Assembly (NCBI GenBank): GCA_963782055.1
Contig: CAWAIF010000003.1
Span: forward strand, 5,344,001 to 5,408,000
DNA length: 64,000 bases
Direction of reading: 5' to 3'
Source of the DNA: an uncultured delta proteobacterium
GTDB lineage: Bacteria > Myxococcota_A > Polyangia > Polyangiales > Polyangiaceae
Every line of letters starts with the position of its first letter. Position 1 is the first letter of the stretch. The notes beneath the pieces were generated by a model. It had not been told where the DNA came from. It made no database searches and worked only from the letters and a program-made list of their open reading frames with translations. The position numbers and the translations under genes are program-made. Of the stretch, positions 20,065 to 43,407 are shown piece by piece.

Positions 20065-20118
20065 CGCCTACCTCTCCAATCCAAGCGCTCCTGCTTCGGC
20101 ACCGTCGCCTCGGCGCAC

Positions 20119-23372: not shown

Positions 23373-23567
23373 CCGCCGCCGACCAGGCGGCGCCAAACTC
23401 TTTGTCGTCCCGAACCGCGATTCGCCCGCGAGAATTCGGGCCGCGCCAACCCCACGTGCTGAGCGACAATTACGTCTCCCCAGCGACGACGATTAGATCG
23501 CCCCATCCCGAGAGGCGTGGTTGGTCGGCCAGGCGCCGGCCCTCTCCGGGATGGAGAGGCGGTAGCC

Positions 23568-25061: not shown

Positions 25062-25906
25062 GCGCCGTCGCCACCCCCGCATCGCCCGCCTCCTCACTCG
25101 CCATGATGCTGCGCGCGCTCAAGCTGCCCGCGTTCCAGCGCTACGGCGAGGAGGTGGCGCACAAGGCCGAGCGCGAGGGCTGGTCCTTCGGACAGTACCT
25201 GCTCCACCTCTCCGAGCTCGAGCTCCAGGAGCGTCGCCGCCGCCGCATCGAGCGCAACCAGAAGCACTCGGAGCTGCCGCTCGAGAAGACCCTCGCGACG
25301 CTCGATCGCGGGCGTCTGTCGCCCAAGGTCCAGAAGCTGCTCCCCGTCCTCTGCCAGGGCGGCTTCCTCGAGCGCGGCGACAACGTCCTCGCCTTCGGGC
25401 TGCCCGGCCGAGGCAAGACGCACCTGGTCTGCGCCATCGGCCACGAGCTGGTGCAGCGCGGCTACCGCGTGCTCTTCACCGCCACCTTCGCCCTCGTGCA
25501 GCGCCTGCTCGCCGCCAAGCGCGACCTGCGCCTCGAGCGCGAGCTGGACTCCCTCGACGGCTTCGATGCCGTCATCCTCGATGACCTCGGCTACGTGCAA
25601 CAGAGCCGCGAGGAGATGGAGGTCCTCTTCACCTTCCTCGCTCAGCGCTACGAGAGAAAGAGCGTGGTCATCACCAGCAACCTGGTCTTCAGCGAGTGGG
25701 ACCGCATCTTCAAGGACCCCATGACCACCGCCGCCGCCATCGACCGCCTCGTGCATCACTCGGTCATCCTGGAGATGACCGGCGGGAGCGTGAGGGCGGA
25801 TCAAGCGAAGAAGAGAGGAGCACCGACAGCCTCGACGACGACAACTACCCCAGCGACAACTACGAACGGAACGCAGTCAGGTAAGGACCTGGATGGGGAG
25901 ATGTAA
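25058..25906 (+). CDS. istB: IS21 AAA+ helper ATPase
   Basis: GLPGRGKTHL, LDDLGY, ITSN, AAIDRLVHH. Confidence 0.95.
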   Translation: MSAVATPASPASSLAMMLRALKLPAFQRYGEEVAHKAEREGWSFGQYLLHLSELELQERRRRRIERNQKHSELPLEKTLATLDRGRLSPKVQKLLPVLCQGGFLERGDNVLAFGLPGRGKTHLVCAIGHELVQRGYRVLFTATFALVQRLLAAKRDLRLERELDSLDGFDAVILDDLGYVQQSREEMEVLFTFLAQRYERKSVVITSNLVFSEWDRIFKDPMTTAAAIDRLVHHSVILEMTGGSVRADQAKKRGAPTASTTTTTPATTTNGTQSGKDLDGEM

Positions 25907-25966: not shown

Positions 25967-26583
25967 GTGGACCCCATCGGCATCTTCCCGTTCGGCCGCC
26001 CCGTCCTGCCTCGGCCTCCCTCCGCGGCGACGAAGCGGCGAAGCGGCGGGTGTTTCTCCTGGGCGCCTACCCAAGCGCGCTGCACGTCGCGTGGCGCCCG
26101 CCTGCGCGCAAGCCCGTCAGGGCGATGGCGGTCGACAACGAGCCCACGCCGTTCTGGAACGGCGCGGATGAGGATGAGCGCATCGCCCAGTGGAAGGCTG
26201 CCGTCGGGTCCCGGGACGGAGAGTGGGGCGAGGTCACCGGCGTGGGCGACCTGAACGGCTCTTCGGGCACCTGGGTCGATGACAACGTGCTCGCTCCGCT
26301 CGGGGTGGGTCGGGACGCGGCGTGCATCACCGATTGCATCGACACGTACTTCGCCAGCGAGGGCGGCGCCGCCCGCGTGGCCGACACCTGCGTGCCGTTC
26401 GTGAAGACCGTCGGGCTACCGGTGCCGCGCCTCGCGCCGCACCCCTCGGAGGGCGCCATCGTCGACGGGGCGCCGCACGCGCTCCGGCTCCTCGACCTTG
26501 AGCTCGCGCAAGGGCACGTCGCCGTGCCAGAACGGGACCGAGGACTCCGCGGTGCCGCGCGCGTTCACGGCTTCCTCTGGTAG
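25967..26583 (+). pseudogene. Frameshifted, probably 3'-truncated UDG-fold-like protein
   Basis: FPFGRPV and VFLLGAYPSALH are in different frames and are joined if one copy of the tandem 8-mer at 26031-26046 is removed; family call from memory. Confidence 0.5.
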
Positions 26584-27404
26584 TGCCCCTGCTGGGGACC
26601 GCCCCCGTGAGGAAACCACGTGTCCAGGAAGCCGGAGACGCCCATGTACCACTCGACGCCGCCCGAATCGTCGCGCCATACCGCCTGCACGTCGTCCAGC
26701 GGAACACAGAGGTTGAGGCCGCTCCTCAGCCGGAAGTGAACGGCGTTGGCTTTCGCGCTGAAGTCGAGCAGCGTGACCGGTTCCGGCAACGTGCGCACAC
26801 CCGGCGCTTGGTGGACCACGCACACCTTGCTGTAGTGCTCGCCCGGGATGCTCTCCAAGAGGACGAGCACCCTCCGAACGTGGGCGTTCATATACATCGG
26901 CATGACCTCCGGCGTCAGGGGAACGTTGTCGTCATCCACGCGCACGTAGAACTGCCACGCGTTCGCGCCCTCGGGCTCGCCACTCCCATTGAGGGTGTAG
27001 AACTGCGCGCCGACGAGCGCGTTGGGGTAAGCCTCCACGTTCACAGCGAGCATCTCGCGCCCGTCCTTCCACGGGATGACGTGCGGCACGGCAACGGGGG
27101 ACGGCCTGCAACGGTCACGCGCAATGTGCTCGTATGCGCGCCGAATGTCCGCGATGCGGTCCGGGGCGAGCCCGGCGAGGTTGGGGCAGCGCGTGGCCGG
27201 ATTCTCGAACGCGCCGACGAGTAGGACGCCGCCGACGTGATTGGCCAGCGCGGCGACGTCCTTCGCCAGCTCCCACCAGTGCTGCGGTTTGACGTCGCCC
27301 TTGTAGTCGAGCGTCGGCCCCTCGCGCTCGTCGTGCGTCGCTTCGACCTGTGCGCGCGTCGTGATGCGCCGGTTGATGACGCCGGTTGTCACGCGCGGGC
27401 TCAC
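26565..27404 (-). CDS. AlbA_2 (Schlafen-like) domain protein
   Basis: EREGPTLDYK, LAKDVAALANHVGGVLLVG, FYVR; GTGA coupling to upstream gene. Confidence 0.8.
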   Translation of the reverse strand: MSPRVTTGVINRRITTRAQVEATHDEREGPTLDYKGDVKPQHWWELAKDVAALANHVGGVLLVGAFENPATRCPNLAGLAPDRIADIRRAYEHIARDRCRPSPVAVPHVIPWKDGREMLAVNVEAYPNALVGAQFYTLNGSGEPEGANAWQFYVRVDDDNVPLTPEVMPMYMNAHVRRVLVLLESIPGEHYSKVCVVHQAPGVRTLPEPVTLLDFSAKANAVHFRLRSGLNLCVPLDDVQAVWRDDSGGVEWYMGVSGFLDTWFPHGGGPQQGHYQRKP

Positions 27405-27697
27405 GGCTCGGGCTCCGCGTGGGCGCGGCGCTTCGGGCCGAGGTCCGTCACGACCCCCACAAGGTCGTCTTGGTTTGGCGAGTCGTCGAGCCCTTCGGCG
27501 AAGGTGAGGAACATCTCCCCCACCTCCCCGCACGCCTGCGGGGTCGTACTGCTCGCGAGAGTCCTGAAGTAGCAGGCGTTCGCGTCGGTACCGGCGGCGA
27601 CGGGTGCCGGGTTCGAACGCGTTGCAGGTCGTGCGGCCGGGCCGCTCGGCCGCGTCGTGCGGAGCTTGAAGGGTCGCGGTTGGTTGTTGCTGCTCAT
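27401..27697 (-). CDS. Hypothetical protein
   Basis: 4-nt overlaps at both ends. Confidence 0.5.
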   Translation of the reverse strand: MSSNNQPRPFKLRTTRPSGPAARPATRSNPAPVAAGTDANACYFRTLASSTTPQACGEVGEMFLTFAEGLDDSPNQDDLVGVVTDLGPKRRAHAEPEP

Positions 27698-28344
27698 GGT
27701 GTCGGCGTTCCTCCGTCTGTCGGCTTCCTCTCGAGTCTTCTCCCATCAATGTCAGGCGTCGGGGCTTGGTGCACAGCTGCCGACACCGCAACGCCGACCT
27801 GAAGCAGCGGGATGACGACGAGCGCAAGCGTGTAGATTTTGAGCCACTTGGTGTGGTCGTTGAGCGCCTTCGCGGCCGCGACCTGCTCGCTCGCGAGCGC
27901 AGTGGCGCGGTCGGCGATCTCCTTGCTGGCCTTCGCGATGGCCACTTGGTCTCGCGCGAGCCGCGCGGACTCTGCGTCGTTCGCGGCGCGGCGCGCCTCG
28001 AAGTACTCCTCGCGCGCGTCCTCGTACTCCGCTCGCGCTTCCTCCTCGGCTAGCCTCGCCTGCTCGCGACGATGCGGGAGCGCGGGCCCGTTCTCGTCGC
28101 TTGCGACGAGCGTCCTACCGCCCGCTGTTCGGAACCTCCCCGAGATAGGCTCGAAGCGGCTCGCGGCCAAATGCTCGCCCGCGGGCTGCGTGCGTGTACT
28201 CGTAACCCATCGGGCAAGCACGGCCCTCTCGTGTGCCGCTCGCGCATCGCGGAGCTTCCTCCGTGCCGCTTCATGGGCTTCGCGCGCCGTGCGCACGTCG
28301 CTCGTTGCCAGCTCCGGTTCCTTCGCCTCGAGCTCTTCGCTCAT
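27694..28344 (-). CDS. Coiled-coil protein with C-terminal TM helix
   Basis: ATG 28344; helical Ala/Glu/Arg-rich region; WLKIYTLALVVIPLLQVGVAV. Confidence 0.6.
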   Translation of the reverse strand: MSEELEAKEPELATSDVRTAREAHEAARRKLRDARAAHERAVLARWVTSTRTQPAGEHLAASRFEPISGRFRTAGGRTLVASDENGPALPHRREQARLAEEEARAEYEDAREEYFEARRAANDAESARLARDQVAIAKASKEIADRATALASEQVAAAKALNDHTKWLKIYTLALVVIPLLQVGVAVSAAVHQAPTPDIDGRRLERKPTDGGTPTP

Positions 28345-28526
28345 GGGCGCGCCTCGGGCGGCGTCGCCAGCGCGTCTACGGTGGCGGCGGCGAGCAGTGC
28401 GGCGCGGCGTTGGCGCTCGCCGTGAGGCTCCCACGCGTAGGCGTTGCTCGCGTCGAGCACGTCGGCCAGGAGCCGGCGCGCGGCGGTGCGGCGGTCGGCG
28501 TACGTGTGGGTCGGGGTCGTGTGCAT
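28341..28526 (-). CDS. Small hypothetical protein
   Basis: AGGAGGA upstream; stop overlaps next ATG. Confidence 0.45.
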   Translation of the reverse strand: MHTTPTHTYADRRTAARRLLADVLDASNAYAWEPHGERQRRAALLAAATVDALATPPEARP

Positions 28527-28738
28527 TGCGCAAGTATCCTAGTCCTCCTGCTGCGACTGAAAAAGCGACGCCAGTCCGCCGCACGAGGTCGGCGCGCCAC
28601 TCCGTCGGCACGTCGCCGGCTGCGGGCCAATGGAGGTTCCGCTGGCCCGCCCCTCCGCAAGTGCTAATGAGGAGCCGCCCCGCGTCGACGGTAATCGACC
28701 CGGGCGGGCTCTCAAGGGAGAGCGCCGGACCCAGGTAC

Positions 28739-30862
28739 ATGAGCAAGACCACGAAACTTCGCGCACGTGCGCTGCGCCTGCGGCCAGAGGTCGCGCGCTT
28801 GCGCGCCGCGGGCGGGCTCACTCCCCAGGTCCTGGTCGACGGCGCGTCCCTCGGGGTGTGGTCTGCCCGCGTCGGGGCCGACGTCCAGGCGGTTCTCGAG
28901 GTGCTTCGGGAGGCTGCTGACGTGGGCCGCCGTCAGCTCGTCCTCGTCGTCTCCGCACGCCTCGCGCCGGCAAGCTGGCCCGCACCGCACGCGCAAGTGC
29001 TGTCAGCTCCGGGTATCGCCGGCCTGCTTCGGGGGCACGCGTTTGGAGATGTAGACCTGCCTGCTCTTCCCAGCGTGGTCGTCGCGGGCGTGGAGCACGA
29101 CCGGCAGCTGCTGGACTGCCTGGAGGCCGGCGCGACCAGCGTTTTGGACATCGCCACCGGTCGCCTATGGACCGGCAGCCAGCGCGAGCACTACGACGCC
29201 GACTTCGCTGCCGCCGCGGGCAACGCCGCCGTCGACCAGGCACCCGCGGCCAGCAGGGCGCTCGCGGCCATGGTGACGGCTTCACCCGCAGCGCTGCGAA
29301 CTGGTCGCGTGCACGTAGTGTCCGCATTGCACCGTGAGGAGGGCCACGTGGTCCTGGACAGCGTCACTGTCGACGACGGCGCACGGCATCGCGCCGACGG
29401 CCACGTCGCAGGGCTACGACTCCTGCGCGGTGTTCTCGCCCGCGGTGCGTTGCCCGTGATGACGTCCTCGATGGACGTGCTCGACGCGCTCTACGACGCC
29501 GGAGAGCCGCTGCCTTTCCGTGTGGAGGACCCGGCACTCGCGTGCGCCGTGCTGGACCCCGACCTCCGCTCCCTGCCTCCCGGCGTCGGCTCGGCGTGGC
29601 ACGCGGTACTCTCTGGCCGGCGAAGTGAGCGCCCAGTCAAGCCGGCCGCGGACCTGCTGCTCGATGAACTGCCCACGCTTCACGACGAGCTCCGCGATGC
29701 GCTGCGAGCGGCCTCGCTCCTGCCGCTCTACGAGGAGGACGTCTGCGCGACGGCGCCGCTCTTCGCCGCGCTCGAGTCGGAAGGGTTTCGCGTCGACAAG
29801 GCGGGGCTGAGCACAGACCTCGCTGCCGTCGAAGCGGAGATGGTCCTGGCCCGCGCCGTCGTCCTGAAGGGCGTAGGGGACCACGCACTCCGCAACGCGG
29901 ACCTCGTCGGCGGGTCGAGGGTCCATATCGGTCAGCTCATCCGGATGGCCGACAGTTCGCTCCCCAGTGCATGGCGCAACGAAGACCAGCTGCTCGAGCG
30001 CTACGCGCTCTACCGCAATCCACGCGCGATGGCCGTCCTCCGACTCCGCGCGCTGGATGCGGTCTACTCGTGGATGAAGAAGCTGGAGGGGCTCGACCGG
30101 CTCCGCAGCACGCTCGACCCTTCCGCCACCGGCCGCTGGTACCCTCATGGAGAGGCGCTCTTCACCATCTCCAAGCGGGAGTCCGAGGCCATGAGACTCC
30201 GCGCGCACCTGGTTCCCGAGCCGGGCCACGTGCTTGTCGCAGGTGACTTCGCCGCGTTCGAGCCGCGCTTGCTCGCCCACCAGTCCGGCGACACCACGCT
30301 CGTTGCCGGCTGCCAGCCCGGCCGCGACATCTACACCCATCTGATGCCCCTGCTCGGCGTCACCGACCGCGACATCGCCAAGCAGGCCCTCCTCGCCTTC
30401 ATGTATGGGCGGTCCGCTCGGTCGTTCGCCGTGTCGCTGCCCCTCCCACTGCCGGAAGGGCATGCCGTGTTCAACAAGCTCGAGAGCCAGTTGACTGGCT
30501 CGCTCGCGTTCCGCAAATCGGTGCAAGAGAGCGACACCACGTCGGCCCGGTCGCTCCTCGGCTGGCGACGCCTGCGGAGCACCCAATCGCCCGCCAAGTT
30601 CGCGCGGCAGGCGTTCAACCTGCGGATGCAGGGGTCGGCCGCAGACCTTCTTCGCAAACTGCTGCGGGACCTGCATGCCGCGCTGCCCGCCTCGGTACGC
30701 GTCGTGCACCAGGAGTTCGACGCCGTGATTCTGACATGCCCGGCTCCGCAGGCGGTCGCCGTCGAGGCGTTGCTCAAGAACACGATGGAGAATGTCGCGA
30801 AGCTCACGGTGCCGCTCGTTGCCAAGACCAAGCATGGAGCTACTCTCGCCGCCGTATCGTGA
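28739..30862 (+). CDS. Divergent family-A DNA polymerase (707 aa)
   Basis: ATGRW, motif A GDFAAFEPRLLAH, motif B RDIAKQALLAFMYG, AFNLRMQGSAAD, motif C HQEFDAV, LTVPLVA. Confidence 0.88.
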   Translation: MSKTTKLRARALRLRPEVARLRAAGGLTPQVLVDGASLGVWSARVGADVQAVLEVLREAADVGRRQLVLVVSARLAPASWPAPHAQVLSAPGIAGLLRGHAFGDVDLPALPSVVVAGVEHDRQLLDCLEAGATSVLDIATGRLWTGSQREHYDADFAAAAGNAAVDQAPAASRALAAMVTASPAALRTGRVHVVSALHREEGHVVLDSVTVDDGARHRADGHVAGLRLLRGVLARGALPVMTSSMDVLDALYDAGEPLPFRVEDPALACAVLDPDLRSLPPGVGSAWHAVLSGRRSERPVKPAADLLLDELPTLHDELRDALRAASLLPLYEEDVCATAPLFAALESEGFRVDKAGLSTDLAAVEAEMVLARAVVLKGVGDHALRNADLVGGSRVHIGQLIRMADSSLPSAWRNEDQLLERYALYRNPRAMAVLRLRALDAVYSWMKKLEGLDRLRSTLDPSATGRWYPHGEALFTISKRESEAMRLRAHLVPEPGHVLVAGDFAAFEPRLLAHQSGDTTLVAGCQPGRDIYTHLMPLLGVTDRDIAKQALLAFMYGRSARSFAVSLPLPLPEGHAVFNKLESQLTGSLAFRKSVQESDTTSARSLLGWRRLRSTQSPAKFARQAFNLRMQGSAADLLRKLLRDLHAALPASVRVVHQEFDAVILTCPAPQAVAVEALLKNTMENVAKLTVPLVAKTKHGATLAAVS

Positions 30863-32766
30863 GGTTGTACACCCCGTGGAGCAACTGCCAGCGCTGTGAG
30901 CGCGCGGAGTATCGATGGGGCATCTTCGCGCCGGCGACGACGAGGCCCAAGGTTCTGGTTCTAACCGCGGGCGCCTCGCGGGCGAGCCAGTGCATCGGGA
31001 AGCCCGACCCGCTCCCGGCGCTCATCGCGCGAGGCATCGCCTTCCTCTACCGGCTCCGGCCCGCGGACATCCATGTCGACACGCTCCTCGCGTGCGGGGC
31101 CTCCGGCGATGCTCACGCTCACGACGCGGCCGCGTGCGCGCAGCGGATCGAGGACCAGGCAGTACTTGGTGCCTGGCCGGTTGTTCTTGTTGTTCTGGTC
31201 GGTGAACGTGCCGCCAGGCTCGCTCGGTACGCCGGCTTGCTCACCACGTCAGGCTTTCGGCTCGCCGGTCAGCCTCGGCCGTTCGTCGTCGTGCACGAGC
31301 CCTGGGAGGTGGGGGTCGACGCTCCGTGGTCCGCCCTGGGCACTCGCCGCAGGCTACCCGAGTCGCTCCAGCTGTACCCTTCGGCGGAGGGCGTGCTTCT
31401 GGACGTGGTTGCCGGGCGCTGCGACGGACACGCTTGGCGTCCCATCGGCGGCGAGTGGCGCCGCTCCTATGAGCGACCGTCGGCCGAGCTCGTGGCGGCT
31501 CACGTCGGAGGGTACGGCTGGCTGTCTCCGTATCGCCCGGTCGGCGCCTGGCCCTACGTCGTCATCGACGTGGACCTGCACAACGCCATCCAGTACGCGC
31601 GCTACGACAGCGTGCTGAGGAAGCTCGACAAGCTCTTCAAGACGAGCCTGGTCTTCCAGAGCAGCCCCACCGGCGGCGCGCACATCTACGTGCGCCTGCC
31701 GCCCGATACGACGTACGCAGCCGGCGCGGTCTGGCTGACCGAGTTCCTTCTTGTCCACGGTCTACTCTTTGAGGGCACGGCACCCGGGCCGTCTGCGACC
31801 GTGCGTGGCAACGTTGCCACCCGGCTTGTCGATGTGCCGCTACATCCCCCGCGCCTTCCCTTCGGTATTGGCTCTTGGCTGCGCGGATTCCCTGACCCCG
31901 TCAAAGCCGTGGAGAGATTCAAGCGGTGGCTGGCGGCGCAGGACTTCGGCGACTTCGAAGGCGCGCGTAGCGCCGTCGAGGCGAAGCGGAAAGGGAGGGT
32001 ACGCTGGACTGCGCGCGCGCGGTGGGCGCGCACCTACGTGCACGACCTCGAGCTCGAGGCGCTCGGGAGCCCGGGCAGGAAGAAGCCGTTGGCCGCAGGC
32101 GACCCCTGGTTGCCGTACTTGCCCCGCCTTGCACCGAGCGTCGCCGTGCTGGCCACCAACGGCTGCCTCGCCTTCGGTACAAGAACCGGGACGATGATGC
32201 GGCTCGCCGAAGCCCTCGCCGAGATGGTCGAGCCAGCGACCGCTCGAGAACTACTCCGGTACTGGGTGGAAGAAAGAGAACACCGCTCGGAGGACATTCA
32301 CGTCGCAAAGGAGGATGTATTGGCCTTCGCCGACCATCTCATCGATGAGTGCTTCGCCGGGCGCGGAATCCCGGTACGCACCTGGGCGCTCGCCGAAGCC
32401 GCGGTGAAGAAGCTGTATATCGCCATCGGCGCCGGGCGGGCGGCGCCGATGGCCCTGACGGAGGAAGAATGCCGTCGCGCAGCCTTTCACGTCCTGCGCC
32501 TCTTCTACGAGGCTCGCCACGGCTGCATCGTCATCACGGCCGAGCAATTCGGTCTGGCGCTCAAGCGCGACGACATCGGCGGGCTACCGGTACGCCGCCC
32601 GAACCAGGCCCGTGTGGAGAGCGTTCGGAAGGCGATGAAGCGACTGCTTCTCACCCAGACCAGGGAGCCCAACTACACGAGCGGCAAGGCTGGCGAGTAC
32701 GAGCTCGGCGCCCCCTATTGGCCCCCACCCCCAAACGGCGAGCCGCTCCTCTACCAGCCGACTTAG
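30859..32766 (+). CDS. Fusion: inactivated family-4 UDG-like domain + AEP primase + PriCT-like + wHTH-like
   Basis: GTGA coupling to Pol; CQRC..LLAC..AAAC; VIDVDLH and SPTGGAHIY; GTRTGTMMRLA; GKAGEYEL. Confidence 0.75.
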   Translation: MRLYTPWSNCQRCERAEYRWGIFAPATTRPKVLVLTAGASRASQCIGKPDPLPALIARGIAFLYRLRPADIHVDTLLACGASGDAHAHDAAACAQRIEDQAVLGAWPVVLVVLVGERAARLARYAGLLTTSGFRLAGQPRPFVVVHEPWEVGVDAPWSALGTRRRLPESLQLYPSAEGVLLDVVAGRCDGHAWRPIGGEWRRSYERPSAELVAAHVGGYGWLSPYRPVGAWPYVVIDVDLHNAIQYARYDSVLRKLDKLFKTSLVFQSSPTGGAHIYVRLPPDTTYAAGAVWLTEFLLVHGLLFEGTAPGPSATVRGNVATRLVDVPLHPPRLPFGIGSWLRGFPDPVKAVERFKRWLAAQDFGDFEGARSAVEAKRKGRVRWTARARWARTYVHDLELEALGSPGRKKPLAAGDPWLPYLPRLAPSVAVLATNGCLAFGTRTGTMMRLAEALAEMVEPATARELLRYWVEEREHRSEDIHVAKEDVLAFADHLIDECFAGRGIPVRTWALAEAAVKKLYIAIGAGRAAPMALTEEECRRAAFHVLRLFYEARHGCIVITAEQFGLALKRDDIGGLPVRRPNQARVESVRKAMKRLLLTQTREPNYTSGKAGEYELGAPYWPPPPNGEPLLYQPT

Positions 32767-32769
32767 ACA

Positions 32770-33062
32770 TTGGACCCCCTCTTTTCCCGAAGTATTTCGA
32801 CGAGACCGCGTCGAAACGACGCCAGTAAATAGAAAGGCCCGTGTGGTCCCGGTGGGGTGTCACCGGTGTCACCGACATCTGCCCCCCCCTCCTCTGCAGG
32901 ATTGTAGTCCGCTACCGGAGAGTGTCCCTCCTGAGTTCGGGAGACCCAGGAGGGCTCACCGCCTTGGGGGATGACTAGGCGGGGCGCACCCACGCCTTTC
33001 TATTTACTGGCGTCGTCTGTGGAGCAACCCGCGAGGAAACGCCGAGAAAACGAGGGGCCCAA
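32770..33062. repeat. Nested inverted repeats, candidate replication origin or structured RNA
   Basis: Perfect 23-bp IR ACGACGCCAGTAAATAGAAAGGC (32816-32838 and 32994-33016); imperfect outer IR (32770-32786 and 33046-33062). Confidence 0.8.
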
Positions 33063-33580: not shown

Positions 33581-33627
33581 TGGTCGCATTGGTAGATCCT
33601 TACACCTTGGCCGCCCTACGGCGGCGG

Positions 33628-35143
33628 GTCTCTGCTTAGCGGCCGGAAGACGGCCCGCGGCCCGGGCGTGACGTCGACCGTCGGAGGACTCGCCGGCTAG
33701 TGGGCAAAGACAGACGGAGGCGGCTTGCCGTGGAGGTGACTTTCGTACAGCCCGATGACGAAGCCCCGAAGCGGGAGCCGGCACTTGCGCCGCGTCTGCG
33801 TGATGCTCATCCAGTGCGCCAGGGTGGCGCTGCCGGCGGCCGAGCGCGTGCCGCCGGTCATCGCGCGGTGCCGCCCGTGGGCGCGGATGTCGCGTTCGGT
33901 CGCGTTGTTCGTGGCCGGGACGTCGGGGCGGTCGATGAAGAGCGTCACCCCCACCTTGTGCTCGTCGAGGCGCTCCTGCAGCCGGACGATGTCCGGGAAC
34001 TCCACGAAGTTGGTGCTGCTGATGAGATGGCCGAGGCGGATGCGCGCGCCTCGGCGCTGCTCGGGATCGCCGCTCGCCGCGGCCTGCTTGCCCGCGACGT
34101 AGAAGCCGATGAGTCGGTCGCGGAACTCCTCGGTCGCGGCGCACGGGGTGAGCTCGGCGATCTTCTTGGCCTCGCGGATGGTGTGCGCACCGCAGTAGGC
34201 GTGGGTCCAACCGTCGTGACTCGTGTACACGCCGTAGAAGTCGGTGCACAGGACGCCTTTGAAGCCCGCGCCGAGCATCGACTCGGCGACCCACGCGCCG
34301 CGCGACAGCTCGGCGCGGAAGACCGAGACGCGGTCGGTGCGCATCAGCCACATCCAACCCGGCACGCCGTCCTGTCGATGGCCGCTCTCGTCGAGGCCCG
34401 CCACGGGCGATGCGCGCACCGCGTCGACCAGCTCGTCGTAGCTCGGCGCCGAGCGGCGTCGCAATCGGTCGAACATCTGCGCCAGGCCGCCCGTCGTGAT
34501 CGAGATGCCGAGCCACTGTCCGAGGAACGCACGGATCTTGCCCAGCGGCATGTCCCGCTCGAAGCGCAGGTCCAGCGCCATCGCCTGCACGTTGGGGCCG
34601 AACGACACCGCGGCGACGCTCTTGCCCGCCGCCGGCGCGCCCGGCAGCTTCGCGACCACGCGCTTGTGGCACACCTCGCAGCTGCCGACGTGCGCCACGT
34701 GATGCGTCTGCCGCGGCTGCACCACTGGGATGTCGGTGACGACTGTGCTGTCCGTCTCGCCCGTCGCCACGACTGCCCCGCCACAGCTGCACGTCGCCGG
34801 CATCTCGTGCACGACTTCGTCGTCGACGTGGGCCGGTGCGGCGGGCCGCGATCCGACATGCCCCGCCTTGCGGCCGCGTGGCTTGCCCGAGGCCGCCCGC
34901 CGACCCTCGGAACGCGACGTCCGCCGCTTCCCGCGCTCCCGGAACCCGCGCTTCCACTCCTCGATCTCCTTGCGCAGCTTCGCCAGCTCTTCGCGAAGCG
35001 CGGCGTTCTCCTGCTCCAGCTCCTGGATCCGCTGCTCGGGCGTCACGTGATCCGGGATGCTCCCGATCAGGTCCCATGGAAAGAACTTCTCGCATCAGGA
35101 ACGAAGAATGGACCCACAGTGTGCGACACCGCTAAGCAGACAC
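33628..35143 (-). mobile_element. IS66-family element, copy 2, inside intron domain VI
   Basis: Same TIRs and length as copy 1; 8-bp TSD GGCGGCGG at 33620-33627 and 35144-35151. Confidence 0.93.
33697..35046 (-). CDS. IS66-family transposase
   Basis: Protein identical to 13178..14527 in the ORF track. Confidence 0.93.
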   Translation of the reverse strand: MTPEQRIQELEQENAALREELAKLRKEIEEWKRGFRERGKRRTSRSEGRRAASGKPRGRKAGHVGSRPAAPAHVDDEVVHEMPATCSCGGAVVATGETDSTVVTDIPVVQPRQTHHVAHVGSCEVCHKRVVAKLPGAPAAGKSVAAVSFGPNVQAMALDLRFERDMPLGKIRAFLGQWLGISITTGGLAQMFDRLRRRSAPSYDELVDAVRASPVAGLDESGHRQDGVPGWMWLMRTDRVSVFRAELSRGAWVAESMLGAGFKGVLCTDFYGVYTSHDGWTHAYCGAHTIREAKKIAELTPCAATEEFRDRLIGFYVAGKQAAASGDPEQRRGARIRLGHLISSTNFVEFPDIVRLQERLDEHKVGVTLFIDRPDVPATNNATERDIRAHGRHRAMTGGTRSAAGSATLAHWMSITQTRRKCRLPLRGFVIGLYESHLHGKPPPSVFAH

Positions 35144-35230
35144 GGCGGCGGTTGGAGTCAAGACCCCCTCTCAAACCGTGCGTGCGGATTTCCCGCACAC
35201 GGCTTACCGGTGGTCTCTCGTGACGCGGCA

Positions 35231-36535
35231 TTACGCGGCCTCCGGGTAGCGGATGGTCCCGCGCAGGCGGTGGAGCCCGAAGCCTTCGACGAAGTAGTCG
35301 CGGGTCCAGCGCTCGGCTTGTCCGGCCTTGAGCTTCGAGCCGGCCCGTTTCAGGCGCAGCGCTCGAAGCCGTTCGTACACGTACTCGTCGAGTCGGTTGA
35401 ACTTCACGTCGGCGTTCCCGGTGCGAAAGTACTCGCCCCAGCCACGCAGCACGGGGTTGAGCTGCGCGACGACGTCGCGCAGGTCCGCGTGGCAGCATGA
35501 TCGCGGGGTGAGGTCCCTCACGCGCTGCCGGATCCGCTTCATCGCGCGAGCCGATGGCCAGCGCTGGAGGAAGTACACGCGTTTGCGCGACCTCTCCCAG
35601 ATGGACCCGCTCAAGCGTTTCCGCAGGTGGCAGCCGAGGAAGTCGAACCCCTTCTTACCCCAGGAGAGGTCCAGCTTCCTCGTCTTGTCCGGGTGCAGCT
35701 CGAGCCCGAGTCGCGTCATCACGTGCTTCACGCGAAGCTCGGCCTCGTCGACGTCACGCTTCGTCCTGCACATCACGACGAAGTCGTCCGCATAACGAAC
35801 CAGCTCGCCAAGATGCGCGCACCGCTTCGTCCACACGTCGTCGAGCACGGCGAGGTAGATGTTCGAGAGCAGCGGCGAGATCACCCCGCCCTGCGGCGTG
35901 CCGCTGGAGGGGTTGGTCACCGTGCCTTCGTCCATCACCCCCGCCGTGAGCCACTGCCGCAGCAGCTTGAGCACCCTCCGGTCCGAGATGCGCCGCTCGA
36001 CGAGCTTCATCAGCTTGTCGTGATCGATGCTCCCGAAGTAGTCACGGATGTCGGCGTCGAGCACGTGGTTGTACCCCTTCGCGCCGAGCTTCCTCAGCGT
36101 CTCCAGGGCGTCCGTCGCGCTCCGCCCGATACGGAAGCCGTACGAGCACGAGCGAAAGCTCGCCTCGAAGATCGGCTCCAGCACGAGCTTCGTCGCCATC
36201 TGCACCACCCGGTCTCGGACCGTCGGGATCCCAAGCGGCCGCTTCTTCCCATCGGCCTTCGGGATGTACCGGCGCAGCACCGCTGCCGGCCGGTACCTGC
36301 CTGCACGGAGCACGTCATGGATCTCTCCGAGGAGTCGATCCACTCCGTACACCTCGAGCGCCGCGATCGTCTGGGCATCGACGCCCGCGGCTCCCTTGTT
36401 CCTCCTTACCCGCTTCCACGCTTCCGCGAGGACGTCACGCCTCGCGATGCGGTCATACAGCGCGTGGAATCGGCGCTCCGGATGCCGCTTGGCCGCGGCA
36501 CACAGCCGGCGTTGCAGTTGTCGCACTTTGTCCAT
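35231..36535 (-). CDS. ltrA: Group II intron reverse transcriptase/maturase, no endonuclease domain (alternative start 36580)
   Basis: GAAGVD, RPLGIPTVRDR, GTPQGGVISPLL, RYADD, LRGWGEYF. Confidence 0.95.
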   Translation of the reverse strand: MDKVRQLQRRLCAAAKRHPERRFHALYDRIARRDVLAEAWKRVRRNKGAAGVDAQTIAALEVYGVDRLLGEIHDVLRAGRYRPAAVLRRYIPKADGKKRPLGIPTVRDRVVQMATKLVLEPIFEASFRSCSYGFRIGRSATDALETLRKLGAKGYNHVLDADIRDYFGSIDHDKLMKLVERRISDRRVLKLLRQWLTAGVMDEGTVTNPSSGTPQGGVISPLLSNIYLAVLDDVWTKRCAHLGELVRYADDFVVMCRTKRDVDEAELRVKHVMTRLGLELHPDKTRKLDLSWGKKGFDFLGCHLRKRLSGSIWERSRKRVYFLQRWPSARAMKRIRQRVRDLTPRSCCHADLRDVVAQLNPVLRGWGEYFRTGNADVKFNRLDEYVYERLRALRLKRAGSKLKAGQAERWTRDYFVEGFGLHRLRGTIRYPEAA

Positions 36536-37160
36536 GGGCTGTCGCCGATGGGGGTGGTTGGGACCGGTCTCGCCGGCCATGCCCTCGCGCTTACCTGCTC
36601 CGCCGACACGACCACTGCAGGGGTCTTTCCCTCCTGCCGCGTTGTTCTTCACGGCGTTCGTTCGCGAAGCTCGCGCCTCGCTCTTCGGTACAGTGACCCC
36701 CTCGGACTCCCGCTGCGCAGCGGCCGACTTCGCCTCTGGCTTATACGACGCGCCTTGCCCCGACGAGGGCGACGCAGACGGGCCTCCCGAGTTCCGCACT
36801 CCTCCTTGCACGCGTGCTGCGCTCCCTACCCCGCCGGGACCGACGGCGCGTTTCGGATCTGGCGCCGCCGATATTGCCTTCGCCGCGACATGATCGGCTC
36901 GGCTCCCGGTTTGTAGATCTGACGAGGCTGCAAGCTTCACTTCATGTTGCGGCCCGCGTGCTCGCTCGGTCCGTGGACCCTTTCGACGCCCCGCTCGGCC
37001 AACGGGATCTCTCCCGCTCGGCTGGGGCCTGCTACCCGGCGCTCCGACGCTTACCGGTGCGGGACTCTCACCCGCTGGAGAAGCGCAGCTTGAGGCAGGT
37101 CGTTCGTCGGGCATGCCCGACGGACGACCTGCTTCTTCACGGCGCACCATGCGCGCAGCC

Positions 37161-39136: not shown

Positions 39137-39197
39137 GTGATTCTCCCGTGAGTGTATTGTCCGCCGTGCACCACCCCGAAGGGAAGACGTGCTCTCT

Positions 39198-40712
39198 TCA
39201 TCTGGAAAGTAGAGTCAACGCTTCATCAAGGTGGCGCACGGCGTCTGCCCATCGGGCGGGCGCGCCCGCGCGGACCGACGCGGGGGGGTGACGCTCGTTC
39301 TCCTCGGCGAGTCGCTGGATGTCCTCCCGTACTGAGCGCAGCCGAGACAGCACGCGCCGCGTCCGTGGCCCATCCGGTCCTGCAGCCACCCTCGTAGGCG
39401 TCGTCGCTGGCTGGGCCTTGCCTAGGAGCGTGAGCGCCCCGCGCGCCGTGGGACTCCTGCCCTGCGCTTTCGTCGTCCTGAGGTAGTCCTCGAAGATGCG
39501 GGCCGGCACGCTCGCGAGCTGCTCGAACCTCGAGCACTCTTGCTTGGAAATGCCGAGGTCCGATAGTGCCGTCGCCTTCGGCGTCGTGAAATGGGTCGCA
39601 ACGTGCGACCTATTCCCCTTGCGCCCCGCCGGAGCCTGCGGGAGCTCCCGCGTGAGCTCGCCCAGTCGACGGCGAGCGCGCAGGAAAATCTCGTCGGCCG
39701 CCACACGCGCGGCCTCGGCGGCGAGTGCGGAGCGTAGGTAGGCGCGCACCGCGGCTGCGCGGTCCACGAGGTCTTTCGCCTCGGCCACATGGTGGCAGCG
39801 GACCAGTACGTCACGCGCCTGCTCGACGTGGGCGGCCAGCTCCTCTGGGCCCATGAGCACGAGCGCCGTGCTGGGCTGAGGCTGCGTATCGGCTTGGGCG
39901 GGCGGTGGCGATGCCGGCGTAGCCTGCGGCTCGGGGGAGGCCGCGGCCTCCCTGGCCGTGACGCTGGCGTGGAGTCGGGCAATCGCATCGCTCAGGGCGG
40001 GGGTCAGCATGATCTCTCGCATGTGCTCCGGGGTGTCGAGTCGCCGCCGCACTCCCTCGAGTACGCTGGGGTAGAGGGCGAGCAGGAGTGCATCGAGCTC
40101 GGCGCGGCGAGCTTGGCCGCCGCCGCCGCCGCGCTCAAGACCAACCCGTTCGTGCGTCAAGCTAACGAACCGCGCCATGTCCGGCGTGCGCTCGGCCACC
40201 GGGACCGCCCACTGAGTCAGCGGCGCCAGCTGGATGCCTTCAAGTCCATCGCGGACCGCGGCAGGAAGCCGGGGAGCGGGAGTCACGGTCGTGATGCTCT
40301 TGCCGTTCACCGTCATGGTGAACGTCTGGCGCGCCCATTGCGACGGGGGCGGACGCTCTGGGCCAACCGGCATCAGCCCAAGTGGAGGGGCCGAGCGGCG
40401 GGCGGCGGATGCTCGCAGCAGTTCCACGAGCGCCCGACGGGCACCGGGGTACGCGTCGACCACCTGCAGCCCAAACAGGTTCGCTGCGGCTACGTTACCG
40501 GCGCGCGTGTACGTCTCGAAGCGCTTGAACAAAGCGGGCAGGCCCAGAGGATAGTCGCCCGTCAGGTCCGCGGAGTCTTGGACGCGCGCGCGAATGAGGC
40601 GGACGAGCGGCTCCGCCTCCGCGGCGGCCGCGATGGTCTCGGCGACGCCCGTCAGCGCCGCGTCGGAGTCGCCGAGCGCGCCCCCTGGCGATGGGATGTT
40701 GTCGCGCATCAT
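39198..40712 (-). CDS. Two-domain hypothetical protein with phage-like C-terminal helical/HTH domain
   Basis: VAEAKDLVDRAAAVRAY..EIFLRARRRLGEL..LSDLGISKQECSRFEQLA. Confidence 0.65.
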   Translation of the reverse strand: MMRDNIPSPGGALGDSDAALTGVAETIAAAAEAEPLVRLIRARVQDSADLTGDYPLGLPALFKRFETYTRAGNVAAANLFGLQVVDAYPGARRALVELLRASAARRSAPPLGLMPVGPERPPPSQWARQTFTMTVNGKSITTVTPAPRLPAAVRDGLEGIQLAPLTQWAVPVAERTPDMARFVSLTHERVGLERGGGGGQARRAELDALLLALYPSVLEGVRRRLDTPEHMREIMLTPALSDAIARLHASVTAREAAASPEPQATPASPPPAQADTQPQPSTALVLMGPEELAAHVEQARDVLVRCHHVAEAKDLVDRAAAVRAYLRSALAAEAARVAADEIFLRARRRLGELTRELPQAPAGRKGNRSHVATHFTTPKATALSDLGISKQECSRFEQLASVPARIFEDYLRTTKAQGRSPTARGALTLLGKAQPATTPTRVAAGPDGPRTRRVLSRLRSVREDIQRLAEENERHPPASVRAGAPARWADAVRHLDEALTLLSR

Positions 40713-40741
40713 TGGCTGGAGTATGTATCACAATCTCCAAC

Positions 40742-41368
40742 ATGAAGCCATACACGTTCACGGCCGGGCAGGTGGTCGACCTCACCGGGATGAGCAAGCC
40801 GGTGCTCTCGGACCTCATCCGGCGCGGCATTCTTGCCCCGACCAGACATCGCGGGGCGGGCACGGGCGACAACCACCTCTTCGACACGGCGGACCTCCTC
40901 GGCATCGCGAGCGTCCAACGTCTTCGTCCGAAGGGCGAGACCACGAGCCTACTCAGAACCCTCTTCGAGTTCTGGCATTCCGACGAGGGCCTGCGTTTGG
41001 TCGACGGCCCGCGTCCCATCGCCGGGGTGGTCGTCATCGACGGCAAGGGAGTCTCCTTCCTGGCGGAGACGGACGTTGTGAGGCTGAGCGCATTGGTGAA
41101 GTCGGCGGCCTTCTACGTCATCGAGCCAAACAGTTTGGCGGAGGACTTGTTTGGCGACGTCGCGCACTTCCGCATGACCCACGAGCACATGGAGCCCTTG
41201 CCATCCGGACGTGAGCCGCGCCTCCGGCCGGCGGCGACGAAGAAGCCCCGCAAGGGCGGCGACACCAAGCCCGGGAAGAACAAGAAAAAGCTGCCCGCGC
41301 TGCTGCGTGAGTCCCGCGCGAAGTTGGAGACGAAGAAGCCCGGGAAGAAGAACGGGGGGAACAATTGA
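40742..41368 (+). CDS. MerR-like HTH regulator
   Basis: FTAGQVVDLTGMSKPVLSDLIRRGILAP..FDTADL. Confidence 0.7.
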   Translation: MKPYTFTAGQVVDLTGMSKPVLSDLIRRGILAPTRHRGAGTGDNHLFDTADLLGIASVQRLRPKGETTSLLRTLFEFWHSDEGLRLVDGPRPIAGVVVIDGKGVSFLAETDVVRLSALVKSAAFYVIEPNSLAEDLFGDVAHFRMTHEHMEPLPSGREPRLRPAATKKPRKGGDTKPGKNKKKLPALLRESRAKLETKKPGKKNGGNN

Positions 41369-41721: not shown

Positions 41722-42275
41722 CCCGCAGGTCCTTCCCGCCGTTCGTCACGACCACGGTCGCCGCGGCGTACTGCGGCTACAAGGACGCGAGCGCCATCCG
41801 CAAAGCGCATCGCGAGGGACGCCTGCGGCCGGTGGGTCGCCGCGGCGGGACCGGCCCGTGGATGTGGGCGCTCGACGAGCTCGACCGATACCTGCGGGGG
41901 GAGCCACCGGCTGATACAATCGCGTCGGACCGCCTGAGTGCGCCCTCCGACCCTGGAGAAGTGCATGAAGGACAAGAAGCAGTGGTTGTACCGATGGAAG
42001 AACTGGCTCAGGGCCAGCGCCGTTCCGGGCGTCTGGCAGAGAAAGGAGGGCGGCCACTTCGTGCGGGTCCGCGTGATGGACCCGACGTCGGGGCACATGA
42101 AGGAAATCAAGAGGTCGCTCCCGGAAGCGGACGAGGCCACGGCCTACAAGTGGCTGAGCGAGGAGAAGAAGCGCATCCGCGCCGGGCTCGCCTCGGCGCC
42201 GCCTCAGCAGACGCGCTTCGCCGACTTCGTGACGTCCTTGGTGGAGCAAAAGGTGGCGAACAGGGACATCAGTAG
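41718..42275 (+). CDS. Excisionase-like HTH protein, overlaps integrase 5' end
   Basis: VTTTVAAAYCGY..AIRKAHREGRL..WALDELDRYL. Confidence 0.7.
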   Translation: MTRRSFPPFVTTTVAAAYCGYKDASAIRKAHREGRLRPVGRRGGTGPWMWALDELDRYLRGEPPADTIASDRLSAPSDPGEVHEGQEAVVVPMEELAQGQRRSGRLAEKGGRPLRAGPRDGPDVGAHEGNQEVAPGSGRGHGLQVAERGEEAHPRRARLGAASADALRRLRDVLGGAKGGEQGHQ

Positions 42276-43296
42276 CGCCAAGGGTCGCGAGCGTTGGCGA
42301 CACACGCTGACGCATCTCATCGCGGGCACGAAGGGCGAGAAGTCCGGCACCTTCGTTCCGGGGTTCGGGGAGTACTACATCGACCGGTTGCACGTGACGC
42401 ACGTCGAAGCCTGGCGGACGGGAATCGCCACGCTCATCGTGGCGGGGGACTACTCCCCGAACACGTGCAACAGCTGGCTCGCGATTCTGCGGGTCATCAT
42501 GCGAGCCGCGAAGAAGACCTTCGGGCTCGCCCACCTGGCCACCGAGGACGTGAAGGACTTCGACACGTCGGAGTTCGACACGTACACGGAGGAGGAGCCC
42601 AACGCGCTGCTCCCCGAGGAGGTGGGCCTCTTCTTCGAGGCCATGCGCACGCGGTACCCACAGTACTATGCCATGGCCTACCTCGGCCTCGTCACGGGCC
42701 TGCGACCGTCGTCGCTTCGCCCGCTGCGCCGCCGAGGACCGGAGGCTGACTTGCTCTGGGAGGAGGGGCGACTGCGGGTGCGTCGCTCGCAGACGCTCGG
42801 CAACGAGGTGATGAACACCACCAAGCAGAAGCGCAAGTACACCATCGACCTTCCGGAGGAGGTGATGGGGGTGCTGCGCTGGCACGTCGAGACGCAGCTC
42901 TCGACGCCGGAGCAGAAGGCGTCCGAGCTGCTCTTCCCCTCGGTCAGCGGGGGCTTCCGTTCGCCTTCCGTCCTCAACAAGCCGTTCGCCGAGGTGGCGG
43001 AGGAAATCGGGCTGGGCAAGAAGTTCACCCAGCGCGGGCTCCGCCGCACGTTCAACGACCTCGCCCGCATCGCGCAGGTGAGCGACGTGGTGACCCGGAG
43101 CATCTCCGGTCACCTCACCCAGAAGATGCAGGACCACTACTCGACGCCGAGCGCGGACGAGAAGCGGCAGAGCATCGCGCGCGTCATCGAGCTGGCCAGC
43201 CGCCGGCCGGCTCCCGCCCCCTCCCCTCCGGGAGGTGGTGCTCCAGGTGGTGCTCCGAACGCCGGAGGTGGTGCTCCCAACGACAAAGCCGGCTGA
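41965..43296 (+). CDS. Tyrosine integrase
   Basis: TGLRPSSL, TTK, RGLRRTF, ISGH, HY; adjacent to tRNA 3' end. Confidence 0.92.
   Translation: MKDKKQWLYRWKNWLRASAVPGVWQRKEGGHFVRVRVMDPTSGHMKEIKRSLPEADEATAYKWLSEEKKRIRAGLASAPPQQTRFADFVTSLVEQKVANRDISSAKGRERWRHTLTHLIAGTKGEKSGTFVPGFGEYYIDRLHVTHVEAWRTGIATLIVAGDYSPNTCNSWLAILRVIMRAAKKTFGLAHLATEDVKDFDTSEFDTYTEEEPNALLPEEVGLFFEAMRTRYPQYYAMAYLGLVTGLRPSSLRPLRRRGPEADLLWEEGRLRVRRSQTLGNEVMNTTKQKRKYTIDLPEEVMGVLRWHVETQLSTPEQKASELLFPSVSGGFRSPSVLNKPFAEVAEEIGLGKKFTQRGLRRTFNDLARIAQVSDVVTRSISGHLTQKMQDHYSTPSADEKRQSIARVIELASRRPAPAPSPPGGGAPGGAPNAGGGAPNDKAG
43233..43277 (+). repeat. Three copies of AGGTGGTGCTCC, candidate integrase arm-type sites
   Basis: 43233-43244, 43245-43256, 43266-43277. 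Confidence 0.65.
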
Positions 43297-43335
43297 GGGA
43301 CACCCTCAACCGGCCAATTTTCAGCGCTTTTTTCG

Positions 43336-43407
43336 AGCGGGAGAAGGGATTCGAACCCTCGACGTCCACCTTGGCAAGGTGGCACTCTACCACTGAGTTA
43401 CTCCCGC
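43336..43407 (-). tRNA. tRNA-Gly (GCC), no encoded CCA; probable integration site
   Basis: GCGGGAG/CTCCCGC acceptor stem, CCACC-TTGCCAA-GGTGG anticodon arm, TTCGAAT T-loop. Confidence 0.97.

Follow-up and report, generated by a model that had tools for sequence, protein, structure and literature searches.

A candidate replication module of a Pol I-like polymerase, a UDG-like/AEP protein and a palindrome in a rare family of integrative elements

Background

Integrative islands are usually assumed to be passively copied. The small number of elements that carry their own polymerase (pipolins, casposons and SCCmec) have reshaped ideas on how such elements persist after excision and on the origin of replication enzymes. 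The question addressed here is whether a gene pair and an adjoining palindrome in an island of a myxobacterial genome form a replication module of their own. The DNA analysed (the window) is a stretch of 64,000 nucleotides from an uncultured delta proteobacterium of the Polyangiaceae (assembly GCA_963782055.1, contig CAWAIF010000003.1, positions 5,344,001 to 5,408,000), the genome of which is 7.6 Mb with approximately 69% G+C. It contains a gene for a family A DNA polymerase (PolA), followed by a gene for a protein with a uracil-DNA glycosylase (UDG)-like domain and an archaeo-eukaryotic primase (AEP) domain (the UDG-AEP protein) and then by a large nested palindrome (Table 1). Because high G+C yields many spurious open reading frames (ORFs), genes in the window were called by codon-position G+C, together with homology matches.

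A sequence-only reading of this locus had proposed that it is a self-replication module of an integrative element: a divergent family A polymerase translationally coupled to a UDG-AEP primase with a PriCT-like segment and a winged-helix-like tail, a palindromic origin and no helicase. ColE2-type Rep proteins and the defence-rich pipolins were offered as analogues, and no described family was recognised. The same reading named what would speak against it: the lack of an AEP fold, homologues linked neither to each other nor to integrases, a catalytically dead polymerase, or an ordinary prophage with capsid and helicase genes. The analysis below leads to a similar answer, held with modest confidence: PolA, the UDG-AEP protein and the palindrome probably constitute the replication module of a rare family of integrative elements, which resembles the modules of ColE2, RSF1010 and SCCmec and belongs to none of them.

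The polymerase

PolA scores 103.6 bits against the Pfam family DNA_pol_A (cut-off: 34.3; E-value: 1.4e-29), with the match confined to residues 454-702. Its homologues begin at the same MSKTT residues. The start is therefore the ATG listed in Table 1 and the long open frame upstream (27839-28738) is not coding; it was rejected as part of the gene. An AlphaFold (AF2) model built from 16 sequences has a predicted local distance difference test (pLDDT) score of 87. In a VIA structure search, residues 187-707 of this model align with KlenTaq (3lwl_A; Z 32.0, root-mean-square deviation [rmsd] 3.2, 491 residues), and full-length Taq aligns over residues 28-707. The N-terminal domain has approximately 160 residues, compared to approximately 290 in Taq. 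These alignments indicate a Pol I-like architecture with a shortened 5'-nuclease-like domain and a Taq-like exonuclease domain.

Motif A (D503 and E508) and motif B (R544, K548 and YG) are invariant in the family alignment. The catalytic Asp of motif C (D661) is retained, and both catalytic Asp residues are present. No DxE exonuclease motif occurs in the alignment. By Pfam score, Klenow-type fold and motifs A, B and C the protein is a family A DNA polymerase, as had been proposed, and it is probably an active polymerase that lacks proofreading. It was rejected as a canonical Pol I, as it scores 90.8 bits against the NCBIfam Pol I equivalog PRK05755 (cut-off: 720), has no exonuclease DxE and has a shortened 5' nuclease. 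Only 11 close relatives were found (including the window's own protein), the next-best matches being canonical Pol I enzymes with 24-30% identity.

The UDG-AEP protein

The GTG start of the UDG-AEP gene (30859-30861) overlaps the TGA stop of the polymerase gene as GTGA. This coupling was read directly in the sequence, and the homologues begin at the same residues as the window protein. The protein has no match in Pfam, PHROGs, NCBIfam, PADLOC or the PDB sequences. An AlphaFold model built from 15 sequences (pLDDT 87; predicted template modelling score 0.85) and structure searches bear out both of the folds suspected from sequence, UDG and AEP.

The N-terminal domain matches family-4 UDG and UdgX structures (Foldseek E-value: approximately 1e-3), with low pLDDT at residues 1-22. 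Pfam UDG is weakly matched by 3 of 15 relatives, below the curated cut-off, and a profile search of the PDB returned 4zbx only, at a weak E-value of 1.1, with the regions of C79 and C93 aligned to Cys-bearing stretches. Family-4 UDGs hold an Fe-S cluster through four Cys ligands and have two catalytic motifs, a GE[AG]PG-type motif A and an H-containing motif B. In the UDG-AEP family, C10 and C13 (CxxC), C79 and C93 are conserved. The family-4 glycosylase motifs are not recognisable in the alignment, where the stretches that appear to correspond read L-T-A-G-A-S-R and a variable V-V-x-[ED]. The domain thus has the alpha/beta fold of family-4 UDG without recognisable catalytic motifs.

The central domain is most similar to the CAPP Prim-Pol structure 7nqd (Table 1); the match to 7nqd_B spans model residues 174-381 and was also found in a search independent of Foldseek (Z 13.4). 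Further structural neighbours are Prim-PolC (Z 10.8), LigD-Pol (Z approximately 10) and RepB' (Z 6.9). AEPs have three catalytic motifs: DxD (motif I), (s)xH (motif II) and an acidic residue (motif III). The residues already noticed from sequence, D237 and D239 of the DVD motif and H275 of GAHIY, are invariant in all 15 family members, and position 325 is D or E in all 15, followed by PPRLPFG. Pfam Prim-Pol is weakly matched by 7 of 15 relatives (best E-value: 3e-4, below the cut-off). The modelled fold and the three catalytic motifs indicate that the UDG-AEP protein belongs to the AEP superfamily.

The C-terminal domain gave middling scores to winged-helix proteins in a wide VIA search (Z 5-7), and over residues 535-616 of the model the order of elements is helix-strand-helix-helix-strand-strand. 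Atlas leads for this domain are MarR/IclR-type regulators and PriCT_1 (0.82-0.88, below the trust level). The proposed winged-helix tail is thus upheld with middling support, and the domain is a candidate DNA-recognition part of the protein.

Predicted docking of the UDG-like domain onto PolA

In published UDG-PolA fusions the UDG domain packs against the polymerase, according to the available text of PMC10201439; PolA was therefore tested against residues 1-170 of the UDG-AEP protein. Three complex predictions gave interface scores (ipSAE) of 0.83, 0.84 and 0.47 (median: 0.83), and the best of three controls gave 0.00. The ipSAE mark is reached by 116 of 157 solved complexes and by 2 of 215 mismatched pairs; because the alignments used here were our own, these calibration counts hold only roughly. 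The docking runs share at least 67% of their contacts, and the pLDDT of the partners is at least 83. On the PolA side, the predicted interface is formed by a conserved N-terminal helix (residues 7-27); on the UDG side it involves the invariant residues A91, A92, C93, R96, A122, A125 and G126. Such an interface would account for the invariance of these residues even though the domain has no recognisable glycosylase motifs. The predictions support docking of the UDG-like domain onto PolA.

Linkage and rarity of the gene pair

PolA is encoded directly upstream of the AEP gene, on the same strand, in all 11 loci that could be judged (the window and related loci L001, L002, L003, L011, L012, L013, L014, L015, L031 and L032); one further locus (L008/L028) was excluded from this count as its sequence begins inside the AEP gene. 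The arrangement holds at protein identities down to approximately 27-30%. A recombinase gene lies within 10 kb in 7 of the 8 loci with enough flanking sequence. The enzyme is of the serine type in four of these loci (L012, L014, L031 and L032) and of the tyrosine type in the other three (the window, L013 and L015). In L012, L015, L031 and L032 its gene lies downstream of the AEP gene at a distance of 0.8-1.3 kb. Genes of housekeeping type come immediately behind the recombinase gene in three of them (L012, L031 and L032); judging from its flanking genes, the L032 element appears to be at most approximately 13 kb. Few genes besides the pair and the repeat described below are common to the loci. 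No effector gene is conserved beside the pair, and Pfam detected no helicase or single-stranded DNA-binding protein family beside it in any locus. The homologues are thus linked to each other and, in most loci with enough flanking sequence, to recombinases.

A word-based search found 18 UDG-AEP proteins including the window's own, with relatives from organisms named as Sorangium cellulosum and Polyangium aurulentum. An exhaustive profile search (1.84 billion entries) found 144 cluster representatives with E-values of 1e-3 or less, 68 of them at 1e-30 or less and approximately 50 of full length. The more distant relatives differ at the N-terminus and show weak signatures of AEP-TOTE or Prim-Pol; one bears AEP-TOTE, PriCT_2 and an AAA_25 ATPase. 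A whole-genome search, with the source genome included in each count, detected the protein in 7 of the 383 genomes examined from the family, 5 of 401 from the order and 2 of 401 sampled from the phylum, and in none of the 6 other genomes of the same genus. The UDG-AEP family is very rare and, among the genomes searched, was seen in one bacterial family only. This rarity may explain the lack of a description in the literature searched. A pattern scan of genome contigs gave 113 matches, none of which was confirmed, and tblastx of the module flanks against related loci returned composition-driven noise only. Among sequencing runs, one soil-metagenome contig run contains 0.09 of the query words, and no RNA run is listed.

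Two further observations concern the related loci. A 12.3-Mb genome has three copies of the module, two of which (L011 and L012) carry a second, much larger PolA-family gene, divergently transcribed upstream (L011 2741-5866 and L012 1436-5320, both on the minus strand; 1041 and 1294 aa). One of these proteins has a 3'-5' exonuclease domain and approximately 700 unassigned N-terminal residues; there is no counterpart in the window. A HTH_31/HTH_3 regulator encoded in the window (21276-21662, minus strand) is 59.5% identical to one in L032 (3258-3647, minus strand). As it is the sole gene besides the pair that the window island and L032 share, it is a candidate element repressor.

The palindrome

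As the sequence-only reading had noted, the palindrome starts 4 bp after the UDG-AEP stop codon, with the beginning of its outer arm (32770). The inner arms (32816-32850 and 32982-33016) contain two perfect 23-nt boxes (32816-32838 and 32994-33016), each with an AT-rich core, and the box motif is confined to these two places in the window. Folded as single-stranded DNA (ssDNA), the palindrome has a free energy of -74 kcal/mol, compared to -51 ± 4 for shuffled sequences (z = -5.2; 0 of 100 shuffles as good). A miniature inverted-repeat transposable element was ruled out, since the palindrome region (334 bp) is single-copy in its own genome.

An inverted repeat occurs within approximately 100 nt after the AEP stop codon in 8 of 10 judgeable loci, or 9 of 10 if a short copy in L011, a 12-nt version of the same boxes, is included. 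A box with an AT-rich core (…CCAGTAAATA…AAAGG) is common to the window, L001, L002, L011 and L012. L013 and L031 share a different box, and L014 and L032 each have their own, such that the box differs between protein subgroups and changes along with the UDG-AEP protein. The box type common to the window and L012 adjoins a tyrosine integrase in the former and a serine recombinase in the latter; the boxes thus follow the primase, whatever the recombinase. A recombinase attachment site was ruled out on the same ground and because the repeat is internal to the elements. In six aligned loci, RNAalifold predicts 25 pairs, 16 of which have compensatory changes; this shows that the symmetry is maintained, but does not identify the molecule that adopts it. 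Conservation does not extend to the spacer that separates the arms (65-260 nt). The palindrome is a candidate origin or single-strand initiation site for the element. Together with the linkage data, these counts answer the search that the sequence-only reading had suggested: PolA and a protein of primase fold are a conserved pair, mostly followed by a conserved inverted repeat and found near recombinases of tyrosine or serine type.

The integrative island

The module sits in an integrative island, as had been supposed. A tyrosine integrase gene adjoins the 3' end of a tRNA-Gly(GCC) gene, the last 44 nt of which are exactly repeated 58.4 kb leftward, where there is no tRNA gene. The left copy (2893-2936 of the sequence L019) lies 15.1 kb left of the window start. 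This pair of direct repeats delimits an island of approximately 58.5 kb, of which the window contains the right 43.4 kb. A second tyrosine integrase gene (L019 1573-2721) stops just left of the left repeat copy, which suggests that a further island is integrated there in tandem.

The island is rich in defence genes, in keeping with the likeness to pipolins drawn earlier. They include genes for AbiEi, PIN and SIR2-like proteins, a type I restriction-modification (R-M) system, an RtcR/CARF-like activator and a Gp49/HigB-HTH pair; further genes of defence type encode a ResIII/YgjP helicase-like protein and a Ser/Thr kinase. The island also holds genes for a RadC-like/DUF4120 protein, a DUF932 protein, a Rad52-type annealing protein and a PD-(D/E)XK exonuclease, as well as two IS21-type and two IS66-type elements and a group II intron. 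The island ORFs that were scanned include no member of a capsid, terminase, portal, relaxase, secretion or replicative helicase family. An ordinary prophage was ruled out, there being no capsid, portal or terminase among these ORFs; tail-like matches are limited to the collagen repeat of ORF 448-1158.

Table 1. Features of the PolA/UDG-AEP module and its neighbourhood (window positions)
Feature	Position	Strand	Remarks
Pol I-like family A DNA polymerase (PolA), 707 aa	28739..30862	+	ATG 28739, TGA 30860-30862, read directly in the sequence
UDG-like / AEP Prim-Pol / helical and winged-helix protein (UDG-AEP), 635 aa	30859..32766	+	GTG start; TAG stop 32764-32766
Family-4 UDG/UdgX-like fold, residues 1-162 (predicted)	30859..31344	+	VIA Z 9.4-10.3 to 4zbx, 1ui0, 1l9g, UdgX
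AEP primase-polymerase catalytic domain, residues 172-381 (predicted)	31372..32001	+	VIA Z 14.1, rmsd 3.7, 184 residues to CAPP Prim-Pol 7nqd
Winged-helix-like C-terminal domain, residues ~502-635 (predicted)	32362..32763	+	Z 7.0 Fur 2xig, 6.0 ORC 7jgr_B, 5.8 TFIIE 1q1h, 5.4 ORC2 5c8h
Nested palindrome, 293 bp, candidate origin or single-strand initiation site	32770..33062		Starts 4 bp after UDG-AEP stop
IS66-family insertion, ~550 bp downstream of palindrome	33613..35151	-	DDE_Tnp_IS66 E-value: 1.5e-34
Group II intron with reverse transcriptase/maturase	35145..37150	-	Rfam Intron_gpII 35145-35207, group-II-D1D4-4 36942-37077; RVT_1 and GIIM in ORF 35231-37150
MerR/HTH_17-like protein adjoining the integrase	40691..41368	+	Pfam MerR_1 E-value: 5e-4, HTH_17 E-value: 6.5e-3, both below cut-off
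Tyrosine integrase of the island	41938..43296	+	Pfam Phage_integrase 30 bits (cut-off: 27.1); phrog_1 integrase E-value: 1e-26
tRNA-Gly(GCC)	43335..43407	-	3' 44 nt (43335-43378) form the right attachment repeat

Replication and its alternatives

Several observations weigh against a replication module. No helicase was found within or beside the module in the window, as the sequence-only reading had also remarked, and the module contains no initiator ATPase. No curated AEP profile is matched above its cut-off by the window protein, which has no Pfam match, or by its relatives. The PriCT-like segment that had been proposed was not recovered: none of the 15 family members matches PriCT at E-values up to 5, the Atlas lead from the protein to a PriCT_1 cluster (0.88) is below the trust level, and hhalign of the family against the distant relative with PriCT_2 aligned only the AEP N-terminal half. 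Motif C of PolA reads FDA in the window's close subfamily (HDE in the distant one: L012, L013 and L003). L015 has no inverted repeat beside the AEP gene, and the flanks of L011 that were examined contain no recombinase. Covariation in the repeat is compatible with a DNA hairpin, paired protein-binding sites or RNA structure and cannot tell these apart. The structure of a UDG-PolA fusion has been solved (9qhs), and similarity to structures of this kind may account for part of the complex score. Finally, tblastn found no match in 72,556 plasmid records (E-values of 1e-3 or less) or 50,697 phage records, and of 37 pattern matches among the IMG/VR viral contigs none was confirmed; the module has thus never been seen on a free replicon.

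The palindrome leads to the best-surviving alternative, in which the module acts on single-stranded intermediates of transfer or rolling-circle replication. Its palindrome would then be an ssDNA initiation hairpin, at which the primase and polymerase turn incoming ssDNA into double-stranded DNA, and not a vegetative double-strand origin. This is a close variant of the replication reading, and we consider it unlikely. A long hairpin with the folding energy and compensatory changes given above would suit it, as would the structural neighbour RepB'. The window island and L014 share genes of the type found in transfer leading regions (DUF932, RadC-like/DUF4120 and the Rad52-type annealing protein), and there is a weak NikA-like match upstream of PolA in L031 (E-value: 1e-5, below the cut-off). 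However, the island ORFs scanned yielded no gene for a relaxase, a coupling protein or type IV secretion, and boxes on opposite strands suit bidirectional initiation equally well.

The richness of the island in defence genes raises another possibility, namely that the pair is carried as defence cargo: a DNA-synthesising anti-phage or conflict system, with a palindrome that encodes a structured template or a regulatory RNA. PolA does match the PADLOC model RTasPolA (DRT; E-value: 2.2e-13), and the distant AEP relatives match Pfam AEP-TOTE, which is named for a conflict system. The PADLOC match is limited to the generic polymerase core (residues 487-693), however, and the AEP protein has none. 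The pair, repeat and recombinase form the core that the small elements (L012, L031 and L032) have in common and are not cargo there; no conserved effector gene lies beside the pair, and the type of repeat goes with the primase whatever the recombinase. This explanation leaves both the conserved cis repeat and the recombinase-linked minimal elements unaccounted for. It seems quite improbable.

Least plausible, and in our view very improbable, is a DNA repair cassette on mobile elements (base excision repair and gap filling, or damage tolerance) similar to the polymerase modules of Prim-PolC/LigC or LigD. In its favour, two repair enzymes, Prim-PolC and LigD-Pol, come next after CAPP among the AEP folds, the AEP protein begins with a UDG fold, PolA has no proofreading motif and Prim-PolC works together with base excision repair enzymes (PMC5663958, in the text available). 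Against it, the family-4 catalytic motifs are not recognisable, no ligase or Ku gene is nearby, the pair occurs in just 7 of 383 family genomes and always in islands, and the cis repeat and minimal elements again go unexplained.

Comparison with known systems

Replication by the element's own enzymes, the reading preferred here, can be compared with several known systems. ColE2-type Rep proteins are primases of AEP-PriCT-1-HTH layout, with an origin downstream of rep and handover to the host Pol I. The UDG-AEP protein resembles them as an AEP primase without a helicase, with a predicted C-terminal DNA-binding part, a cis site directly after its gene and a Pol I-type enzyme. According to the available part of PMC5862659, such helicase-less primases unwind DNA through PriCT-1 and the HTH. 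The present system differs in its extra UDG-like domain, a 293-bp palindrome in place of a short origin and an element-encoded Pol I-like enzyme, and it has neither a sequence match among the plasmid records nor a PriCT-1 match by profile. The ColE2 analogy drawn from sequence extends to the position of the candidate origin, a conserved inverted repeat directly after the AEP gene; membership fails at the sequence level.

In RSF1010 and other IncQ origins, the initiation sites ssiA and ssiB lie on opposite strands as an inverted repeat. The two boxes of the palindrome likewise lie on opposite strands, and the AEP domain shares a fold with RSF1010 RepB' (3h25/3h20; Z 6.8-6.9), a similarity lower than that to CAPP or Prim-PolC. 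IncQ replication needs the RepA helicase and the RepC initiator, neither of which was found here.

Pipolins are described in the accessible text of PMC7385651 as self-synthesising elements with a primer-independent PolB. The window island is similarly integrated at a tRNA gene, bounded by direct repeats and equipped with its own replicative-type polymerase and variable defence cargo. Its polymerase, however, belongs to family A, is by that membership expected to be primer-dependent, and is accompanied by a separate AEP primase; scans of the island ORFs with Pfam or PHROGs showed no PolB family.

A functional parallel that is itself PolA-based is the SCCmec module CCPol-MP-Cch2, which reportedly has its initiation site immediately downstream of its final gene (PMC7581432; this and the following statements on published systems refer to the portions of the sources available). 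The earlier statement that no such layout was recognised thus stands for the domain combination, which was not found in the literature searched, and not for PolA-based modules as such. Both modules belong to an integrative island with its own exonuclease-less family A polymerase, in an operon with a partner that provides priming, and the specific initiation site right after the last gene has its candidate counterpart in the palindrome. In SCCmec, the PolA is itself the primase, with a small, tightly bound OB-fold partner (MP) and the helicase Cch2 (PMC7581432, PMC10061031), whereas in the present module priming would fall to an AEP protein that also has UDG-like and winged-helix-like parts, and no helicase was found. 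Sequence searches are said to miss OB-fold partners (PMC10061031). The SCCmec hosts are Bacillota and the present host is a myxobacterium; it is the domain layout, and not a sequence comparison, that sets the module apart from CCPol.

The same three domains, a family-4 UDG-like domain with unconserved catalytic residues, an AEP and a PolA, are known from UDG-PolA fusions (N4-like and SPO1-like) and AEP-PolA fusions (PolA cluster 8; PMC10201439). In the window, the UDG-like domain is fused to the AEP instead, and its predicted association with PolA is between two proteins. The fusions are phage or cellular genes, whereas the present pair is the core of integrative islands. No description of a UDG-like-AEP protein paired with PolA in integrative elements was found in the available text of papers on PolA classification, mobile-element AEPs and SCCmec, the supplementary tables of which could list such proteins.

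Proposed model

The proposed course of events is as follows. The element would circularise after excision, and the circle would be copied from the palindrome. The C-terminal winged-helix part of the primase would read the two inverted boxes, and the AEP domain would prime each strand in or close to the AT-rich cores. Priming would take place either on DNA that is melted or extruded, as at the ColE2 origin, or at paired single-strand initiation sites, as at ssiA/ssiB of RSF1010. The UDG-like domain, having apparently lost its glycosylase motifs, could serve as a tether that passes the primer straight to the element's polymerase. Because the module has no helicase, unwinding is left to strand displacement or to a host helicase, which might be loaded on a D-loop.

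In its fullest form, the model describes a new class of self-replicating integrative elements with a helicase-less two-protein replisome. An Fe-S-bearing, catalytically retired UDG would couple an AEP to a Pol I-like polymerase, and replication would proceed bidirectionally from a palindromic origin read by a winged-helix domain, independent of host Pol I and DnaG. This version is possible but somewhat doubtful. As a replication module, the locus would add a third solution, in which an AEP primase is tied to a Pol I-like enzyme via a recycled DNA glycosylase domain, and the UDG fold may have been reused as a protein-protein adaptor. PolA, the AEP protein and the palindrome would offer biochemistry a compact three-part system, the candidate origin of which can readily be tested. 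To our knowledge, few plasmid tools are available for myxobacteria, for which the module is a candidate minimal replicon.

Other features of the island

The MerR/HTH_17-like protein encoded next to the integrase is tentatively a possible excisionase or regulator. The IS66 insertion downstream of the palindrome is a later arrival outside the module. It forms a 1539-nt inverted repeat with a 99% identical copy at 13073-14611, and the two copies flank 19 kb that contain the module; recombination between them could invert this segment, or the pair could mobilise it as a composite. The group II intron, whose 5' end lies beyond 37077, is likewise a later arrival. Its 3' domain (35145-35207) abuts the IS66 end (35151), indicating that one element inserted at the edge of the other.

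An IS21-family pair is present in the window (istA-like, 23517-25061; istB-like, 25058-25906). A second IS21-type transposase is encoded in the left part of the island (L019 9451-11073), and in L013 another lies between the inverted repeat and the integrase.

The type I R-M operon (hsdS, hsdM and hsdR; 2356-8527, minus strand) is followed by the gene for an RtcR/PspF-like CARF-AAA-HTH activator (8556-10061; PADLOC E-value: 6.7e-182). A gene run typical of transfer or recombination modules, including DUF932, occupies 17506-21028. Within it are the Rad52/Erf-type annealing protein (approximately 18630-19247, plus strand), the Gp49/HigB-HTH pair (19354-20064, minus strand) and a Cas4-like PD-(D/E)XK exonuclease (20225-21028). 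The RadC-like, DUF932 and Rad52 genes are those that the island has in common with L014. A number of sizeable ORFs without family assignment lie beside the module at 26565-27827 (minus strand) and 37161-40712; among such ORFs, one of 420 aa has a weak Schlafen AlbA_2 match and one of 504 aa matches only a PHROG of unknown function.

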